This document shows positions 2,397-8,743 of a DNA stretch of 32,000 bases, one piece after another (positions within the stretch are counted from its first letter, which is position 1; the number at the start of each line of letters is the position of its first letter). The notes under the pieces were generated by a model. The model did no database searches, was not told where the DNA came from, and worked only from the letters and a program-made list of their open reading frames with translations. Both the position numbers and the translations under genes were made by a program. The stretch is from Thermococcus camini (GTDB lineage Archaea > Methanobacteriota_B > Thermococci > Thermococcales > Thermococcaceae), in NCBI RefSeq assembly GCF_904067545.1, contig NZ_LR881183.1, positions 406,277 to 438,276 of the forward strand, in the 5' to 3' direction.

Positions 2397-2480
2397 ATGA
2401 AAAAGCCGAGAATAATGCTTGGAATGCTTTTGATAATATTATTGATGGGTAGTGTGGCTGGGGCCTATCGGTTTTTTTAA
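2397..2480 (+). other. 27-codon signal-peptide/anchor ORF fragment (MKKPRIMLGMLLIILLMGSVAGAYRFF*), out of frame with the downstream 463-codon ORF because of a T7 run
   Basis: ATG 2397 is preceded by GGTGAGG (2383-2389). The peptide has a basic n-region plus a hydrophobic core, typical of a signal peptide. It stops at TAA 2478-2480 inside the run gTTTTTTTaa (T7 = 2472-2478). Removing one T reads ...AYRFFNKPEKGLLIEL..., straight into ORF 2452..3843. Confidence 0.6.
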
Positions 2481-3843
2481 CAAGCCAGAAAAGGGTCTAC
2501 TAATTGAACTCCCAAATCCAGACCGGACAATGGGCAGGAGCGCGCTTGCCAGCTGGCTGGCCCCTAAGTACCGGTACTACGTCCAGGTCCAGGTAATGAC
2601 ACGGGAAGGTTTCAGAACCGTTTACCTGGGAAGTTCTCCGGGAAAAGTGCTCATTCCCAGTTCAAATCTCTCCGAAATCAAACGCTCCTGGAAAGACGTG
2701 AATCCAGCGGTTCTCATTGACGTATGGATTGTTGAACCCGAAACCGGGAAAACGTACGAGGTCGGGACGTTTAGCATAAGGCTTACTGAGAACTCGATCG
2801 AGGGCCTTCAGAGGTTCACTCCCAAATTCTCAAAGGGTGACCTCCACGATTTTTCGGTGGGTGGATTAGAGAGAACCTCCCCAATTACGCCCACTAGAGG
2901 ATTTTTTGCAGGTTATCGCTGGAGAACGAAGAGAGAATACCTTCGGGAGGACGACTATCCTGGTGGCATGTATCTTCCGGTTCTTATACTTGACAACGGG
3001 GAGGGACACGCCACAGTTCTTGGAGCTTACAAGGTTGAGGTCAGGGAGAGCTCATCCACTTCTTCTGGGCTTTCCATCGGTTTCTCGACCACGATAATCA
3101 GAGGGGCCCAACTGAGTAGTAAGGGCAAGTTCAGTATCAAAAGGGGTTTGGAGAACGGGGAGATACGGATTGAACTGAAAAAGGGCAATGAGTTTGTTAG
3201 GTCTATCATTGATGGTGAAGTAAAGAACGTCAAACCCGGCGATGTGGGAGTTATGGCTATAAAAGGAGAGCCATACATCGCCCTTCAGGTTCTCCAGAAG
3301 TGCTACGTTGATGAGTTTAGAAAGATGCACTGTTTTGACACAGACCAAGAGAGGGTGCTTATAACGGTTTCGGATGTTGAACGAACTTATGACTCCCGCA
3401 AAAAAGCCTACCTCATTAAAACTTTCTCCTTCGTGAACCCTCCAAGGAGCGTGTATCCTGCGGATAGCTTTGAGAGACTTGTCGATGACAACGCGAAGAT
3501 GGAGACACTAACAACACTCTACGGGGAAAAGCAGAACGGGAGATCTTCTCACATGGAGATTTTCCTGGACGAGTACGATACCTACTCAAACTCATACATC
3601 CCACTGCTCGCGGTGACCGTTGCCCTCCAGCCTGAGGCATGGCCGGCATTTTTGATAGGCTTAAGTGCAGTTGGGGGGATTTACATAACGAACGAGGGGC
3701 ATGAAAGGGCATTTGGGGCCTTTACGATTATGGATCAATCGGACTACACCAAGACCACCGTTAAGTACGCGAGTCTTGAGTATTCGGTGAAAGATTCCAA
3801 CCATCACACAAGGTTTCCCTTTGCATATCTGCGGTTTGAGTAG
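2452..3843 (+). CDS. Hypothetical protein (probable secreted or membrane-anchored protein; N-terminus likely supplied by the 2397 ORF fragment)
   Basis: 463-codon ORF from the track with no family I can recognise. It has Ser/Thr-rich stretches and a hydrophobic segment near the C-terminus (IPLLAVTVALQPEAWPAFLIGLSAVGGIYI). It is A/T-richer than the flanking genes. The track start (GTG 2452) has no SD of its own. Confidence 0.6.
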   Translation: MWLGPIGFFNKPEKGLLIELPNPDRTMGRSALASWLAPKYRYYVQVQVMTREGFRTVYLGSSPGKVLIPSSNLSEIKRSWKDVNPAVLIDVWIVEPETGKTYEVGTFSIRLTENSIEGLQRFTPKFSKGDLHDFSVGGLERTSPITPTRGFFAGYRWRTKREYLREDDYPGGMYLPVLILDNGEGHATVLGAYKVEVRESSSTSSGLSIGFSTTIIRGAQLSSKGKFSIKRGLENGEIRIELKKGNEFVRSIIDGEVKNVKPGDVGVMAIKGEPYIALQVLQKCYVDEFRKMHCFDTDQERVLITVSDVERTYDSRKKAYLIKTFSFVNPPRSVYPADSFERLVDDNAKMETLTTLYGEKQNGRSSHMEIFLDEYDTYSNSYIPLLAVTVALQPEAWPAFLIGLSAVGGIYITNEGHERAFGAFTIMDQSDYTKTTVKYASLEYSVKDSNHHTRFPFAYLRFE

Positions 3844-4760: not shown

Positions 4761-5213
4761 ATGTTTAAGGAACATAGACAGGGGCACGTTTTCATTCCCG
4801 GTTTCATCCTTGCTACGATGCTTCTGTTGGTTCTCATGGTTGGTGGTTTTGACTATCTGGCCCAGCGTTATCCTGGGCTCATCGATATGCTCCCGGGCAT
4901 CACGGTGGAGTCTGACCCTACGTCTGGTGGACACATCTTCCTTGAATCATGGGGAAGGCTGTTTTATCCAATCCTTGTCGTGGCACTGCTCACTACAATC
5001 TTTCTGAAAAAGACGGGGCTTCCGGAGGATTCTTTTGTGATATCGAGCTTGGTCATTCCTCTCGTTGTTATTCTAACGGCACTTGCTGTTGTTGCTGTTT
5101 TTGGTGGCAATTGCGAATACGAGTTCGGGTTCTTTGCTATTTACCTGCTCTTTGTGCTTCCCTATCTTCTTGGGGCCTTAGGACACTACCTGCTCTCACG
5201 TCTGGTATGGTAG
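4761..5213 (+). CDS. Hypothetical integral membrane protein (about 4 TM segments)
   Basis: This 150-aa frame is the one supported by the upstream TATA and G-rich SD. It contains four clear hydrophobic helices (FIPGFILATMLLLVLMVGGF, FYPILVVALLTTIFL, VISSLVIPLVVILTALAVVAVFG, FGFFAIYLLFVLPYLLGALGHYLL). The competing track ORFs 4669..5007 and 4949..5242 lack start context. Confidence 0.6.
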   Translation: MFKEHRQGHVFIPGFILATMLLLVLMVGGFDYLAQRYPGLIDMLPGITVESDPTSGGHIFLESWGRLFYPILVVALLTTIFLKKTGLPEDSFVISSLVIPLVVILTALAVVAVFGGNCEYEFGFFAIYLLFVLPYLLGALGHYLLSRLVW

Positions 5214-5269: not shown

Positions 5270-6415
5270 ATGATGGTAAGCTCAGGCTTTAGGGCAACCC
5301 TCCTCAAGCTCGGTCTGCCAGAGGACAGGCTGGCGGTTCTTGAGGGCAAGGGTGGAGTTGTGGAGGGGGAATTCAAGGGCATAAGATACGTCCGCTTTCG
5401 GGATTCCGCCAAAGGGTTCCGGCGCGGAACGGTTGTATTTGAGAACGGCGATGTTGTTCTGGGCTTCCCCCACATAAAGCGTATCGTCCAGCTGGAGAAG
5501 GGGGTAAAAAGGATCTTCAAAAACAGACCCTTCTACGTTGAGGAGAAGGTGGACGGCTACAACGTCCGCGTCGTGAAGGTGATGGACAGGGTTCTCGCTC
5601 TAACGAGGGGCGGCTTTATCTGTCCCTTCACGACGGAGAGGATACTGGACTTCATCAACGATGAGTTCTTCAAAGATTACCCCAACCTTGTCCTGGCCGG
5701 TGAGATGGCCGGGCCCGAAAGCCCGTACATCGTCGAGGGGCCGCCCTACGTGAAGGAGGACATAGAGTTCTTCCTCTTTGACATCCAGGAGAAGGGAACG
5801 GGAAGGAGCCTTCCTGTGGAGGAGAGGCTTAAGCTTGCCGAGGAGTACGGCATTCGTCACGTTGAAACTTTTGGCCTCTACGACCGCTCGAAGATTGAGG
5901 AGTTGCATGAGTTAATCGAAAGGCTGGGCAGGGAGAGGAGAGAGGGCATCGTTATGAAAACGCCCGATATGAAGAAAATCGCGAAGTATGTAACGCCGTA
6001 CGCCAACATCAACGACGTCAGGATAGGCTCGCACATATTCTTCGACCTGCCCCACGGCTACTTCATGGGGAGAATTAAGCGCCTCGCTTTCTACCTGGCC
6101 GAAAAGCACATCAAAGGCGAGGAGTTCGATGAGTACGCGAAGGCCCTCGGAAAGGCCCTCCTCCGGCCGTTCGTTGAGAGCATCCACGAGGTCGCCAACG
6201 GCGGCGAGGTCGAGGAGGTCTTTACGGTGAGGGTGAAGAGCATAAGCACCGCCCATAAAATGGTGACTCACTTCGAGAGGCTCGGTGTGAAGATCCACAT
6301 CGAGGACATAGAGGATCTGGGCAACGGCTACTGGAGGATAACATTCAAGAGGGTCTATCCCGATGCAACGCGCGAGATGAGGGAGCTGTGGAACGGCAGG
6401 GCGTTTGTGGATTGA
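5270..6415 (+). CDS. ATP-dependent RNA ligase, Pab1020/Rnl3 family (archaeal RNA-circularising ligase)
   Basis: Collinear along its length with my memory of Pyrococcus abyssi Pab1020 (MVSS.F...LGL.E.R...LE.KGG.VE.EF.G.RY.R..DSA...RRGTVVF). Nucleotidyltransferase motif I is EEKVDGYNVR (Lys codon 5546-5548). The C-terminus is ...ELWNGRAFVD. The start is probably the second ATG (5273). Confidence 0.9.
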   Translation: MMVSSGFRATLLKLGLPEDRLAVLEGKGGVVEGEFKGIRYVRFRDSAKGFRRGTVVFENGDVVLGFPHIKRIVQLEKGVKRIFKNRPFYVEEKVDGYNVRVVKVMDRVLALTRGGFICPFTTERILDFINDEFFKDYPNLVLAGEMAGPESPYIVEGPPYVKEDIEFFLFDIQEKGTGRSLPVEERLKLAEEYGIRHVETFGLYDRSKIEELHELIERLGRERREGIVMKTPDMKKIAKYVTPYANINDVRIGSHIFFDLPHGYFMGRIKRLAFYLAEKHIKGEEFDEYAKALGKALLRPFVESIHEVANGGEVEEVFTVRVKSISTAHKMVTHFERLGVKIHIEDIEDLGNGYWRITFKRVYPDATREMRELWNGRAFVD

Positions 6416-6802
6416 AGCGGCAGATTTCATGAAAATTATTCTACCAATTTGGATGGATAAGTAAAATCGGGGGACTTTAACTTGCGCCCCCACAAGTTAC
6501 TTGCACCCCTGCAAGTTAAGAGGCTTTCCCCAACCTTTGCGAAAGCAAAGGTTGATCAAAAAGTCTTCGCCGTTAAAAGGGTATGGAAATGTTTGCATGC
6601 TATTTTAATGATGTGTGTTTTAATGGGTTTGTATCAAATTTCATCGATTTTGGGCGTGTTTTGCTCCAACTCAGCGCCCGAAGGGCGCCAAAAATGAAAA
6701 ACATGAGTAAGAACTGTCAAGATTAAGAATAAACCCGTGTAAAAATTAGGCTCATTTAAATGGCATGCCGTTTTCGATGAAACATTCCCCAGAAAAGTTT
6801 CT

Positions 6803-7139
6803 TAACGTGGGGCAAAGCCCACTTTGGGGGTTTGAGACTGCAGGGAACTTTGCCTGCGCAAAGTTTCATCAAAGTTTGTGATTCCCGTTGGGGCTCTTCT
6901 ACAAAGGGATTTCACTTCCAAACTTGCCCGTAAAAGGTTGAATTCTCTAAGATAAAACTTTTCCCACGTGGGTTCTACTTGAACCGCGCTCCAAAGGGGT
7001 GCAAAAACGCTTGAACCTTCCTGGAACGCATCCTTAGAATGAATTCATTCTGCCCAAAAAGAAGTCCTCAAAGAAATCCACTCCAGAACACGCTTTTCAA
7101 GAGGAATCACAACCTTGATCAAACGTCGCGCAGGCGAAC
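6803..7139 (+). repeat. Repeat unit A (~335 nt, diverged copy)
   Basis: Aligns end to end with unit B. Shared blocks are gtggggc.aagccc.actt.gggggtttgaga, caaagtttgtgatt, gggttctactt.aaccgcgctcc, aaaaacgcttgaacc, tcctt.gaatgaat.c and gaatcac.aaccttgatcaaac.tcgcg. Confidence 0.8.
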
Positions 7140-7432
7140 AAGCTTTTAAAAAAGCTTGACCAAAAAGCCTTAACTGCCTAGAAGCGAGGAGTTAGAAGTT
7201 GGTAGCTCTTCTTGAGGTCATGCTCTGAATACAGGGGGTTTCAAGTCAGGTGCCAATGTTTCAAGTGAGAACCAGTTTTGGGTTCCTTTGATGAGGGTTT
7301 AACTTGAAAAAGACGCCCGCAGGGCATCAAAAAGGCAAACCTAACCCAAGAGTGAATTTTAGGCAAGTTCTTTATGTTGAACGCTCCAGTAATGATAAAC
7401 CCCTTGAAAATCGGCACGTCCAAATGGGGCTA

Positions 7433-7500
7433 CAAATTTTGATGAAACTTTGCGCAAGCAAAGTTTCTGGGGGGTGTGGGGGCGTTAGCCCCCCAGTAGT
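7433..7500 (-). repeat. Partial inverted copy of the 5' module of the repeat unit
   Basis: The reverse complement reads ggggggc-taac-gccccc-acaccccccagaaactttgcttgcgcaaagtttcatcaaaatttg. This matches unit A 6845-6879 (ggaactttgcctgcgcaaagtttcatcaaagtttg) nearly base for base. Confidence 0.65.
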
Positions 7501-7513
7501 TTAGAGGAAAAGC

Positions 7514-7850
7514 GGGGTTGTGGGGCGAAGCCCCACTTCGGGGGTTTGAGAGTACAGAGCAAGCTTTAAGAAAGCTTGACCAAAAGTTTGTGATTTTTTG
7601 AGGTAGTGCCCTTAAAGAGGGATTCATTTCAAAATCAGCCATTAGGAAGTTGGATCCCTCGAACAGATTTTTTCACATGGGTTCTACTTCAACCGCGCTC
7701 CTTCGGAGCGCTAAAAACGCTTGAACCCTTCTGAAAAGTTTCCTTGGAATGAATCCAACACTCACAAGCAAATTCCAGAGAATCCACTTAGGAACACTCA
7801 TTACAGACAGAATCACCAACCTTGATCAAACTTCGCGAAGGCGAAGTTTG
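7514..7850 (+). repeat. Repeat unit B (~335 nt); its first 46 nt are repeated exactly, inverted, at 29735-29780
   Basis: See unit A. It starts with ggggttGTGGGGCgaaGCCCCACttcgggggtttgagagtacagag (7514-7559) and ends with the 10-bp hairpin caaacttcgc-GAAG-gcgaagtttg (7827-7850). Confidence 0.8.
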
Positions 7851-7900
7851 CTTTGCAAAAAATTTGTACACCTCCCAACCCAAAAAAGGGTGGAACGGTT

Positions 7901-7917
7901 CGAAAGCCTTTTAAATA
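7901..7917 (+). promoter_or_regulatory. BRE/TATA promoter (CGAAAGCC-TTTTAAATA) for the SPOUT-rpl3 ribosomal-protein operon
   Basis: TTTTAAATA at 7909-7917 lies ~55 nt upstream of ATG 7973. It is the only strong TATA-like box between the repeats and the first operon gene. Confidence 0.45.
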
Positions 7918-7972
7918 GTCTCCATAGACCCCACTTCAGCGTTAAAGTACCCACAGCAAAGGATGACGGAAA

Positions 7973-8743
7973 ATGGCCTGGCACATCTTCATTCCAGATT
8001 CGCTCCTTGAAGAGACCGACGACCCCAAAATCAGAACGTACAAGGTTGGGCAGATAGCCAGGGCCGCTGCAATCTTCGGCGTTGAGCACGTGTGGGTTTA
8101 CAGGGCCGGCGGCAGGGACGGAAGGTTCATCAAAACGATCCTTGAGTATGCGGAAACGCCCCAGTACCTCAGAAAGAGGCTGTTCCCCCTCATGCCGGAG
8201 CTCCGCTATGTTGGCGTCATCCCGCCGCTGAGGACTCCCCACCACAAGCTTAAGGGGAAACCGAGGGTCGGGGAGATCCGCGAGGGCTTCGCCTTTCGGA
8301 AAGGAAGGAGAACCTACGCGGACATCGGCCTCGACGACCTCGCCGCGGTGGAGGGGGACGTTGAGGGGCGCGCAACTTTCAGAATAGTCTCAGCAAGGCC
8401 TCTCAGAGTGATACCAGCGAAGCCAGAGGAATACTGGGGGTACAGGGTGCATCTCACGAGGAAGTCACTGGCAAAAACACTTAAAAAGGCCAGGCTGGAT
8501 TTGGCGATTGCCACCTCCCGGAGGGGGCGTGACATTCGAGAGGTGAAGCTTCCCCCGCTCGAGGGGGAGGTCGGATTCGCCTTTGGCTCACCGAGGAAGG
8601 GCGTGATGGAGCTCCTCGGCGAGGAGGAATATGACTTTGATCTAATCCTCAACACCATTCCAAATCAGCGGACGGCCACCGTCCGCACCGAGGAGGCCGT
8701 GTTGGCCACACTCGCTGTGTTTAATCTCATAAGGAGGGATTGA
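7973..8743 (+). CDS. Putative SPOUT-superfamily RNA methyltransferase (COG2106/DUF171 family), the usual gene preceding rpl3 in archaea
   Basis: 256 aa starting [43 protein letters not shown]..., with ...[27 protein letters not shown] at the C-terminus (trefoil-knot-like end). Its stop lies 1 nt before the rpl3 ATG. Confidence 0.7.

Follow-up and report, generated by a model that had tools for sequence, protein, structure and literature searches.

The 1557-nt spacer bracketed by the Rnl3 and SPOUT methyltransferase genes of Thermococcus camini (positions 6416-7972 of the window, by which we mean the whole 32,000-nt stretch of DNA analyzed) is probably an array in which four diverged members of one DNA repeat family stand in tandem; the family is non-coding, palindromic and dispersed in Thermococcus, and would be either MITE-like or REP/BIME-like in character. 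The initial annotation had left two readings of the spacer: (i) a cluster of structured non-coding RNAs; and (ii) an array of hairpin-ended, non-autonomous elements. The second is favored by our analysis, because the spacer resolves into four units of a kind that is dispersed and variable in number, and the first gains no support.

Organization of the Rnl3-SPOUT spacer

The longest ORF within the spacer encodes 71 amino acids and the short ORFs overlap one another, which confirms the earlier description of a 1557-nt gap with no substantial ORF. The other spacers of the window had been put at 1-200 nt; the ORF map suggests that a few measure about 260-425 nt, but this spacer is the largest by far. 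Its GC content is 0.44 (0.41-0.48 across the spacer), which is under the genome average and compares with 0.55-0.62 in the flanking genes. The plus strand of the window has few T-runs and the minus strand has many. An Rfam search of the spacer gave no match at the gathering score and only noise at E ≤ 10, and a tRNA search of the spacer found none.

All 16 hairpins reported in the initial annotation are present, exactly where they were placed or 1-2 nt away, with imperfect stems at 6807-6822, 6986-7002 (which contains G-T pairs), 7126-7137 and 7315-7325. Their density is above chance when compared with shuffled sequence, the check that had been proposed: the 1.56-kb spacer contains 10 perfect stems of at least 7 bp, against 0.56 per kb elsewhere in the window and 1.05 ± 1.11 in 500 shuffles that preserve dinucleotides, where 10 was never reached. 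The loops had been likened to GNRA and UUCG loops; two are true GNRA loops (GAAA and GCAA), but the commonest is a 3-nt loop (GAA, AAA or TTC) closed by a C-G pair.

The spacer holds four tandem units of ~300 nt (280-335 nt), E1 to E4, which are joined by small GC-hairpin linkers (Table 1). Each unit has two ends in inverted orientation, both consisting of a 20-24-nt perfect hairpin followed by ATCAARG, and its interior carries a subterminal helix (of the GCATGC type in E1) and, at the center, a GC hairpin of 7 bp that closes a 3-nt loop. E2 and E4 are ~70% identical over 340 nt; the units that L188 and L205 have at this locus are 86-87% identical to E2. The first linker module is homologous to the second and is found between tandem units in many metagenome loci; the second is 97% identical over 38 nt to the linkers of L121, L186 and L202. 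The small GC hairpin module likewise occurs beside units elsewhere (L082, L104, L114, L121, L135, L153 and L205). A Logan contig from the same strain (L081) ends inside the spacer array.

Table 1. Features of the spacer and its borders (window coordinates).
Feature	Position	Strand	Composition and basis
Rnl3 gene	5270-6415		Pfam RNA_ligase + Lig_C
Double-hairpin module	6478-6516	.	TAACTTG-N8-CAAGTTA overlapping ACTTGCA-CCCC-TGCAAGT; just downstream of Rnl3, outside the ~300-nt units
Unit E1	6530-6807	+	Left hairpin 6531-6554; central hairpin 6674-6688 (GCGCCC-GAA-GGGCGC); degenerate right hairpin 6779-6801; nhmmer, alignments, fold z-score -4.8
Linker module 1	6802-6843	+	TTAACGTGGGGC-AAA-GCCCAC...GGGGGTTTGAGACTGCAG; joins E1 to E2
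Unit E2	6843-7141	+	Left hairpin 6845-6867; helix 6871-6885 with 7103-7120; central hairpin 6986-7002; truncated right hairpin 7125-7139; inverted repeat I2/I9, fold z-score -5.3
Unit E3	7122-7472	+	Left hairpin 7139-7158; central hairpin 7312-7328; right hairpin 7444-7467; fold z-score -2.9
Small GC hairpin module	7467-7496	.	CTGGGGGGTGT-GGGGGC-GTTA-GCCCCC-CAG
Linker module 2	7517-7557	+	GTGGGGC-GAA-GCCCCAC...GGGGGTTTGAGAGTACAG; precedes E4
Unit E4	7555-7855	+	Left hairpin 7560-7578; helix 7583-7595 with 7810-7827; central hairpin 7695-7711 (GCGCTCC-TTC-GGAGCGC); right hairpin 7827-7850; nhmmer, alignments, fold z-score -5.1
Promoter-proximal block	7851-7972	+	Conserved block of the SPOUT/ribosomal-protein operon, outside the repeat family
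BRE/TATA-like element	7901-7918		CGAAAGCCTTTTAAATAG; putative promoter of the SPOUT/ribosomal-protein operon
SPOUT methyltransferase gene	7973-8743		

The array is flanked on the SPOUT side by a promoter-proximal block that is kept in L002, L003, L021 and L202-L206. The right-end hairpin of a unit adjoins this block in every unit-bearing relative, from T. barophilus to the window, and in Thermococcus sp. P6 (L203) the block is present without a unit.

On the Rnl3 side, the double-hairpin module of ~50 nt occurs twice in three relatives (L002, L204 and L205), as a direct repeat around an archaeal ATPase gene, whereas the window has one copy of the module and no ATPase gene. Archaeal ATPase genes (PF01637/DUF234) are found in the relatives' version of the same spacer, and their association with the units was seen at the Rnl3/SPOUT locus only. 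Such genes, together with SSV-type archaeal integrase genes near some arrays (3 neighbor clusters), might suggest that the spacer arose by decay of a gene or was left behind by a plasmid or virus that had integrated. That possibility is effectively refuted. A tblastn search with the relatives' ATPase-type proteins finds no remnant in the window, in support of the earlier inference against decayed coding sequence; ~1.3 kb of the 1557 nt is explained by repeat units and linker modules; and the unit has no match in plasmid collections, phage collections or the viral contigs of IMG/VR.

Distribution of the family and conservation of its hairpins

A scan of metagenome contigs by the terminal hairpin pattern yielded at least 120 loci. 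The unit is carried by at least 95 Thermococcus-like loci, in at least 139 instances, at least 77 of them full length (241-338 nt). Among the matches listed, the 103 arrays comprise 73 single, 25 double, 4 triple and 1 quadruple; overlap with a long ORF is absent in 69 of the 77 full-length copies; and the unit ends have a family-wide organization of hairpin, ATCAARG and GTGATTC/GAATCAC.

Sixty of the 103 arrays among the matches listed lie at most ~120 nt from a tRNA gene, most of them 0-10 nt past its 3′ end, although the tRNA-adjacent fraction may be inflated, because the locus sample was picked by the terminal hairpin pattern. The neighboring tRNAs in these matches represent at least 16 amino-acid identities, and at 117 of the 182 unique unit ends listed a CCA lies within 12 nt on the outer side. 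C/D-box sRNA genes are adjacent to or near some arrays, and many tRNA genes at unit-bearing loci have no unit. The tRNA association was invisible in the initial annotation because the window contains no tRNA gene. Rnl3 or SPOUT, on the other hand, is present at only 5-6 of the 120 loci listed, and the ligase neighbor is therefore coincidental; adjacency to Rnl3 has no functional meaning, and the association is instead with tRNA 3′ ends. The location had been called suggestive but perhaps coincidental, and it is the reservation that stands. In the literature searched, on Thermococcales MITEs, on tRNA-flanking repeats and on these hairpin sequences, we found no description of the family.

The hairpins are maintained by compensatory change. 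Among the matches listed, the two free stem positions of the terminal hairpin are Watson-Crick paired in 101 of 109 cases, with three variants, and the central hairpin is found in 72 of 76 non-redundant units, with four compensatory stem variants (counted in register; MAFFT placed one subfamily one column off). C(GAA)G, with its complement C(TTC)G, dominates the central loops; triloops of the d(cGNAg) type have unusual stability in DNA. Covariation that preserves the stems is as compatible with an RNA as with a functional DNA hairpin, and is not what is predicted for conserved transposase-binding ends. A rod formed by the whole unit and held together by co-evolving arms finds weak support: the interior arms pair at -13.2 kcal/mol within a copy and at -10.3 kcal/mol between copies, a small difference in duplex energy, and global arm identity (0.60 within a copy, 0.57 for shuffled arms) is an uninformative measure.

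A different interpretation of the same hairpins is that the units are a structured non-coding RNA family, transcribed as 3′ extensions of tRNA and sRNA genes or by read-through from Rnl3, and freed by tRNA 3′ processing. We regard this as rather improbable. The units start 0-10 nt past the CCA ends of tRNAs, so that tRNA transcripts must enter them unless terminated, and the interpretation also draws on the compensatory changes in the terminal and central stems, the fold z-scores of -2.9 to -5.3 across E1-E4, the presence of some G-T pairs (e.g., in the E2 central stem), and the asymmetry of the window, whose plus strand is poor in T-runs and minus strand rich. However, covariation in the hairpins is equally expected for DNA hairpins, no Rfam family is matched, and the family consensus shows no conserved promoter block. 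The low GC content of the spacer is also at odds with a stable RNA in a hyperthermophile; in Thermococcales, the GC content of stable RNAs lies far above that of the genome (66-70% compared with 44% in P. abyssi; PMC3124441). The strand that is co-directional with the tRNA folds no better than its complement (p = 0.16), and the orientation of the central loop relative to tRNA direction is random (11 against 15). Moreover, single units occur between convergent tRNAs (L166), where the transcripts would be complementary to each other, and about half of the tRNA-proximal ends have a tract of at least four Ts within 45 nt, so that many tRNA transcripts probably stop within the first 50 nt.

Turnover and the search for a mobile source

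The number of units varies between orthologous loci. Orthologous tRNA loci contain 1-3 units, and the Rnl3-SPOUT or SPOUT-upstream spacer contains none in Thermococcus sp. P6, about half a unit in T. barophilus, two in T. atlanticus, three in Thermococcus sp. 18S1 and four in the window; in Thermococcus sp. P6, Pyrococcus kukulkanii and Palaeococcus pacificus the spacers measure 139-217 nt and no unit was detected. Closely related strains can also differ in the units they carry: L204 and L205 are 97-98% identical in their flanks, but the segments enclosed by their shared breakpoints, of 418 and 653 nt, are not homologous. E3 is 98.8% identical over 347 nt to a unit of T. atlanticus (L204, 9543-9889), as against 79-88% identity between the flanking genes of the two species. 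Differently flanked copies reach at most ~80-89% identity, and there is accordingly no sign of a recent burst, E3 excepted. Among the orthologous loci compared, no clean pair of empty and filled sites with exact boundaries was found, and L113 has the look of a deletion derivative, not of an empty site.

This turnover bears on whether the units are instead cis-acting DNA elements of the host, that is, terminators or insulators that work in both directions, or binding-site arrays of a palindrome- or cruciform-recognizing protein, which would flank highly expressed genes and be kept alike by selection and gene conversion. Such a role is in keeping with where the units lie, beside tRNA and sRNA genes and immediately before the promoter of the ribosomal-protein operon. 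It also agrees with the right-end hairpin meeting one and the same promoter block in T. barophilus and in the window, with the retention of hairpin structure by compensation, and with the symmetry of the unit, which would suit bidirectional action between convergent tRNAs. In addition, T-tracts are enriched at tRNA-proximal ends (49% against 24%, p = 0.002), including tracts of five or more Ts (18% against 5%). Yet only half of the proximal ends have a T-tract, many tRNA genes at unit-bearing loci do without a unit, and units number from 0 to 4 per locus with no apparent cost, the short spacers of sp. P6, P. kukulkanii and P. pacificus being examples of loci in which none was detected. No binding protein or recurrent neighbor gene was found among the 309 neighboring ORFs, and a 98.8%-identical E3 amid ~79-88%-identical flanks resembles transfer between species more than local selection. 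On balance, we think it unlikely that the units are host elements of this kind and not selfish repeats.

The search for a mobile source gave the following results. No autonomous element or transposase sharing the ends of the unit was found among the 309 neighboring ORFs, in plasmids or phages, or in viral contigs. No target-site duplication was detected at the 182 unique ends, including the TA duplication of IS630/mariner-type elements, and the outer dinucleotides at these ends are not fixed (AG 45, TA 36, AA 35, CT 22). The 309 neighboring ORFs, in 203 clusters, include no recurrent protein family and no transposase in their leading Pfam families, and no RAYT-like (HUH Y1 transposase) gene was seen in ~740 kb of loci.

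Several specific candidates were considered and rejected. IS200/IS605-type ends were suggested by TTGAT, the target of ISDra2, beside the hairpin, but the two ends of the unit are inverted and have TTGAT on the inner side of the hairpin. The units also differ from IS200/IS605-derived PATEs, which have subterminal hairpins on the same strand at both ends and no inverted ends, whereas the unit ends are inverted copies of each other. An origin of replication, prompted by the repeated inverted sites, is rejected by the occurrence of the unit at more than 100 loci. Finally, a box C/D or k-turn reading of TGATGA...CTG around the hairpins was rejected by inspection, there being no D box and the motif being variable (TGATCA, TGGTCA).

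Related systems and possible mechanism

There are several known systems with which the Thermococcus family can be compared. Like MITEs, the units are short and non-coding, have terminal inverted repeats (I1-I3, I9) and are present in multiple copies at unrelated loci; the target-site duplication of MITEs was not detected at the 182 unique ends. With Correia/NEMIS, ERIC and the Sulfolobus SM elements the units share a small size (~300 nt), a non-coding, multi-copy and intergenic nature, terminal inverted repeats of ~35-40 nt, a fold into a long imperfect hairpin, and copy numbers that vary between strains. In contrast to these, the Thermococcus units have no detected target-site duplication, cognate transposase or autonomous element, their ends are perfect covarying hairpins and not conserved sequences, and they have a central GC hairpin, a strong placement at tRNA 3′ ends and frequent tandem arrays.

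REP/BIME sequences of bacteria, which are mobilized by RAYT, an IS200/IS605-like HUH transposase, offer a second set of parallels. These are extragenic palindromes of 20-40 nt that are conserved as hairpins, form oppositely oriented pairs as well as clusters, lie at gene 3′ ends and between convergent genes, generate no target-site duplications, and have a short motif at the hairpin foot (TTGAT/ATCAA in Thermococcus). The 20-24-nt terminal hairpins of our units, with their compensatory variants, inverted pairs and tandem arrays, fit this description. The differences are that the Thermococcus hairpins bound a ~300-nt unit, one whose center is conserved, and are not free-standing 35-nt repeats, that the family is archaeal with no RAYT-like gene seen in its loci, and that tRNA association is not a REP feature.

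In compact genomes, tRNA genes also serve as landing sites or safe havens for Ty3, for the Dictyostelium TRE and DGLT-A elements, and for archaeal tRNA-targeting integrative elements. Those, however, are retrotransposons or integrase carriers that recombine inside the tRNA gene, whereas the Thermococcus units are non-coding and begin just past the CCA end, leaving the tRNA intact. Integron attC sites and CALIN arrays are also imperfect palindromes conserved in structure and not in sequence, with an array content that varies between close strains; the Thermococcus units differ in being ~300 nt long, with three hairpins, and dispersed at tRNA genes, and no attC features (an integron integrase among the neighbors, cassette ORFs, an R/L box organization or a GTTRRRY core) are recognizable for them.

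Taken as a dispersed DNA repeat family, the units might behave as follows. They would act at the DNA level, as palindromes that form hairpins or cruciforms or are bound by protein, and would be spread either by an enzyme acting in trans or by recombination between their conserved ends. They would build up where insertion is harmless, in the 3′ flanks of stable-RNA genes; in the window, the harmless site would be the gap that precedes the promoter of the ribosomal-protein operon. The arrays would expand and shrink as their conserved terminal hairpins recombine unequally, and a secondary role as terminator or insulator beside highly expressed genes is possible.

A more specific proposal, which we hold only tentatively and consider doubtful in its full form, is that the units represent a class of palindromic DNA element new to science, one that homes to tRNA and sRNA genes at their 3′ ends. 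The ends and center of the element would be read as extruded DNA hairpins and not as sequence, and it would be moved or exchanged by an enzyme encoded elsewhere (e.g., a hairpin-recognizing HUH-type enzyme or a recombinase) or by hairpin-guided recombination. Beside the genes that the host transcribes most heavily, the main ribosomal-protein operon among them, the element would have been co-opted as a bidirectional terminator or insulator.

Finally, we note what the family would mean for the Thermococcales, whose genomes are compact and usually described as poor in repeats and insertion sequences. For the window itself, a large gap beside an RNA ligase gene does not amount to a ligase-related RNA locus. 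If a large share of tRNA genes is followed by members of an abundant repeat family, the annotation of Thermococcales intergenic DNA would have to change. The family would also help to explain breaks in metagenome and short-read assemblies at unit loci, and would offer a substrate for the frequent chromosome rearrangements of the order. It also raises the question of how a non-coding palindrome, with neither a visible transposase nor a target-site duplication, reaches tRNA 3′ ends and crosses between species.

Repeat units of the Rnl3-SPOUT spacer

The 1557-nt spacer between the genes for the RNA ligase Rnl3 and a SPOUT methyltransferase is an array of repeat elements, and not an RNA locus linked to the ligase. 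The window is Thermococcus DNA, its SPOUT protein being 99% identical to the one in Thermococcus sp. 18S1. The initial annotation had described it as ORF-free and had listed 16 hairpins; the longest ORF is 71 aa, and all 16 hairpins are present. The excess of hairpins over shuffled sequence, set beforehand as a test, is likewise borne out, with 10 perfect stems of ≥7 bp compared with 1.05 ± 1.11 in 500 dinucleotide shuffles; the rest of the window has 0.56 per kb. The GC content of the spacer is 0.41-0.48, whereas that of the flanking genes is 0.55-0.62. Rfam gives no match to the spacer at the gathering score and only noise at E ≤ 10, and a tRNA search of the spacer finds none.

In a self-comparison, 6807-7138 and 7520-7845 are 70.6% identical over 340 nt, and there are several inverted matches among hairpin-plus-flank segments. 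Alignment and profile search, from which the unit borders are taken, resolve the spacer into four tandem units, E1-E4 (Table), all on the same strand. Each has an 8-10-bp outer hairpin with a loop of 3-6 nt and with ATCAARG on its inner side; a subterminal helix (in E2, AAAGTTTGTGATTCC at 6871-6885 paired with GGAATCACAACCTTGATC at 7103-7120); a GC-rich central hairpin; and a right end that mirrors the left. Compared with shuffles, the folds of the four units have z-scores of -5.3, -5.1, -4.8 and -2.9. Variant unit ends occur elsewhere (T. atlanticus locus L204, 9495-9556; also L102, L194 and L086), in which the terminal hairpin encloses two additional small ones, ACGGGAC-TGTC-GTCCCGT and GTTGAAGC-TCC-GCTTCAAC, making three hairpins in a row.

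Coordinates of features in the window (bare positions) and in compared loci (L-numbers)
Feature	Position	Strand	Remarks
463-aa ORF	2452-3843	+	upstream of Rnl3; no Pfam match
150-aa ORF	4761-5213	+	upstream of Rnl3; no Pfam match
Rnl3	5270-6415		left border of spacer; Pfam RNA_ligase and Lig_C
Double-hairpin module, ~50 nt	6478-6516		single copy in window
Unit E1	6530-6807	+	central hairpin 6674-6688
Unit E2	6843-7141	+	central hairpin 6986-7002
Unit E3	7122/7136-7472	+	central hairpin 7312-7328
Unit E4	7555-7855	+	central hairpin 7695-7711
Short GC hairpin modules	6802-6843, 7467-7496, 7517-7557		between units
Conserved non-repeat block	7851-7972		last 120 nt of spacer; BRE/TATA-like CGAAAGCCTTTTAAATAG at 7901-7918; putative promoter of ribosomal-protein operon
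SPOUT methyltransferase gene	7973-8743		right border of spacer; first gene of L3-L4-L23-L2 ribosomal-protein operon
Double-hairpin module, relatives	L002 2427-2482 and 3563-3650; L204 8041-8085 and 9164-9216; L205 1593-1637 and 2716-2768		direct repeat
463-residue gene, Palaeococcus pacificus	L208 223-1614		likewise without Pfam match
C/D-box sRNA genes (sR47, sR36), metagenome loci	e.g. L146 934-991; L112 3446-3500; L114 1512-1570; L121 12395-12454		8-300 nt from arrays
Type 2 repeats (L048-type flanks), metagenome loci	e.g. L119 422-530; L155 1-170; L094 downstream of 3205	L155 reverse	

The hairpins of the units are conserved and their sequence only poorly so, pairwise identity being typically 70-76%. 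Two positions of the terminal stem that were left free in the search pattern are Watson-Crick paired in 101 of 109 cases (6% expected by chance), with TG/CA (43), CG/CG (33) and TT/AA (24) as variants. Of 76 non-redundant units, 72 have a central hairpin of 7 bp with a loop of 3 nt, whose stem falls into four fully compensated variants: GCGCTCC/GGAGCGC (17), GACGCCC/GGGCGTC (16), GGCGTCC/GGACGCC (9) and AGCGCCC/GGGCGCT (7). By inspection, the outer helix GGGTTY...RAACCC, with its variants, also covaries. Pairing of the remaining arms is only a little stronger within a copy than from one copy to another (-13.2 versus -10.3 kcal/mol, p = 1e-4), so inverted ends with a structured centre describe the unit better than a perfect rod does.

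A dispersed family beside tRNA genes

When used to scan contigs from metagenomes, the terminal motif TTGRTSAAACTTNNCNNNNGNNAAGTT gave at least 120 loci. Most of these come from a small number of vent data sets, and their GC contents are about 0.5-0.56. A profile of the four units, run on the loci listed, finds a whole unit in 95 of them and at least 139 instances in all, at least 77 of which are full length (241-338 nt). There are at least 103 arrays among these loci (73 single, 25 double, 4 triple and 1 quadruple). No more than 5-6 of the at least 120 loci listed contain SPOUT or Rnl3, and the ligase neighbour is therefore coincidental; adjacency to the ligase gene had earlier been called suggestive but perhaps coincidental, and it is the second half of that remark that stands.

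The consistent neighbour is instead a tRNA gene, found within about 120 nt of 60 of the 103 arrays listed, a fraction that may be biased upward since the sample was chosen by one type of terminal hairpin. Among the arrays listed, the unit mostly begins 0-10 nt from the tRNA 3′ end, and the tRNA is always directed into the terminal hairpin. The tRNAs cover at least 16 amino acids and have about 27 different anticodons, and six of the arrays listed occupy the gap between two convergent tRNAs. The trinucleotide CCA lies within 12 nt outside the unit in 117 of 182 unique ends among the matches listed. Where no tRNA adjoins the array, a C/D-box sRNA gene or a tRNA is often close by; in metagenome locus L146, the 3′ end of the sRNA is 8 nt from the unit end, an arrangement like that at tRNAs.

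A second, related palindromic family (type 2) adjoins units of the E1-E4 type or lies directly at tRNA ends. Its hairpin is followed by AGCGCTGGCGGAA, and its centre is GGCGTCC-TTCG-GGACGCC. The layout around this same centre is a hairpin, then AGCGCTGGCGGAARR...GTGC...TTTT...GAGTGTTTCACTC, and copies also occur directly after tRNA CCA ends.

Turnover of the units

Querying with Rnl3 matched only MAGs, and named genomes were reached through the SPOUT protein. Three relatives with Rnl3-SPOUT synteny (L002, L003 and L021) have spacers of 1.7-3.4 kb that contain archaeal ATPase genes (PF01637, DUF234, MCM winged helix) as well as 1-3 units immediately upstream of SPOUT. These ATPase genes left no remnant in the window, in agreement with the initial view that the region is not decayed coding sequence. 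There are three units in the 1069 nt upstream of SPOUT in Thermococcus sp. 18S1, two in the 836 nt that follow an ATPase gene cluster in T. atlanticus, and half a unit in T. barophilus, where the right-end hairpin abuts the same putative promoter block. None was detected upstream of SPOUT in Thermococcus sp. P6 (217 nt), Pyrococcus kukulkanii (139 nt) or Palaeococcus pacificus (207 nt). Thermococcus sp. P6 (L203 9235-10001) lacks Rnl3 between the L10e gene and SPOUT, and the position of Rnl3 is thus variable among Thermococcus. Many MAG contigs (L001, L005, L008, L009, L020 and L023) and a same-strain Logan contig (L081) end inside or beside the Rnl3-SPOUT spacer, consistent with assembly breaks caused by a multi-copy repeat. 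The double-hairpin module of the window is, in relatives, a direct repeat on both sides of an archaeal ATPase gene (PF01637 plus MCM winged helix); the gene and its modules look like a cassette that may be gained or lost by recombination between repeats, and the window would be the empty state.

Four comparisons speak for movement or exchange of the units. Unit number varies between orthologous tRNA loci, the spacer of a convergent tRNA-Thr/tRNA-Pro pair being 256, 827 or 976 nt and that of tRNA-Arg(gcg) 108 or 676 nt. In two T. atlanticus-like assemblies the SPOUT protein is the same and the flanks are 97-98% identical, and the segments between identical breakpoints, 418 and 653 nt long, are non-homologous. 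Over 347 nt, E3 matches a T. atlanticus unit at 98.8% identity, versus 79% for the surrounding L10e, 88% for Rnl3 and 81% for the SPOUT operon. The window is 97% identical to Thermococcus sp. 18S1 from 7809 rightward (SPOUT and the ribosomal operon) and 89% in Rnl3, and the spacer left of 7809 is mostly unalignable. This sharp breakpoint (L202 9836) falls in the right end of E4, a position that points to a recombination tract with its end in the repeat.

An array of hairpin-ended non-autonomous mobile elements had been one of two initial alternatives. The array of repeat elements is upheld, but classical transposition is not: unit ends have no target-site duplication, and no transposase or other recurrent protein occurs near the units (309 ORFs, 203 clusters). 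Nor is there a clean empty site among the orthologous loci compared, and searches of plasmids, phages and viral contigs find no copy. Identity between copies whose flanks differ does not exceed about 80-89%. The sole mobile-element family near the units is archaeal integrase, in three clusters; it is of the SSV type (PF16795), counted as 3 of 148 clusters of proteins that neighbour the metagenome arrays, and its presence probably reflects the use of tRNA genes by integrative elements as well. Expansion and contraction of the arrays, and cassette-like swaps, would be explained by unequal recombination at the conserved hairpins of the unit ends.

RNA or DNA, and relation to known repeats

The other initial alternative, a cluster of structured non-coding RNAs, would make the units functional RNA. 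Several observations argue against it. The GC content of the spacer is below the genome average, whereas that of stable RNAs in Thermococcales is far above it (PMC3124441). In 32 units, the strand codirectional with the tRNA has no folding advantage over the opposite strand (p = 0.16), the central loop on the tRNA-sense strand is of purine type (GAA and similar) in 11 units and pyrimidine in 15, and single units are found between convergent tRNAs. Among central loops, C(GAA)G (19) and its complement C(TTC)G (15) occur most often. In DNA, GNA triloops with a closing C-G pair have exceptional stability, and these loop sequences would fit the formation of DNA hairpins or cruciforms. Possible use by the host is hinted at by T-tracts within 45 nt inward, which are enriched at tRNA-proximal relative to other ends (≥4 T, 49% versus 24%, p = 0.002; ≥5 T, 18% versus 5%, p = 0.03).

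Like bacterial and archaeal MITEs and REP/BIME, the family is small, non-coding, palindromic, extragenic, clustered and variable between strains. Unlike MITEs as defined, it lacks target duplication, and no cognate transposase, the second defining feature, was found among the neighbouring ORFs; for these reasons we file the family under neither MITE nor REP/BIME. What sets it apart is that its three hairpins are conserved in structure and that it lies so close to the 3′ ends of tRNAs. The literature searched gives no earlier description of Thermococcales MITEs, of tRNA-flanking repeats or of the hairpin sequences. What is known here is the MITE- and REP/BIME-like behaviour; what may be new is a palindromic repeat family of Thermococcus that is placed at the 3′ ends of tRNA genes.
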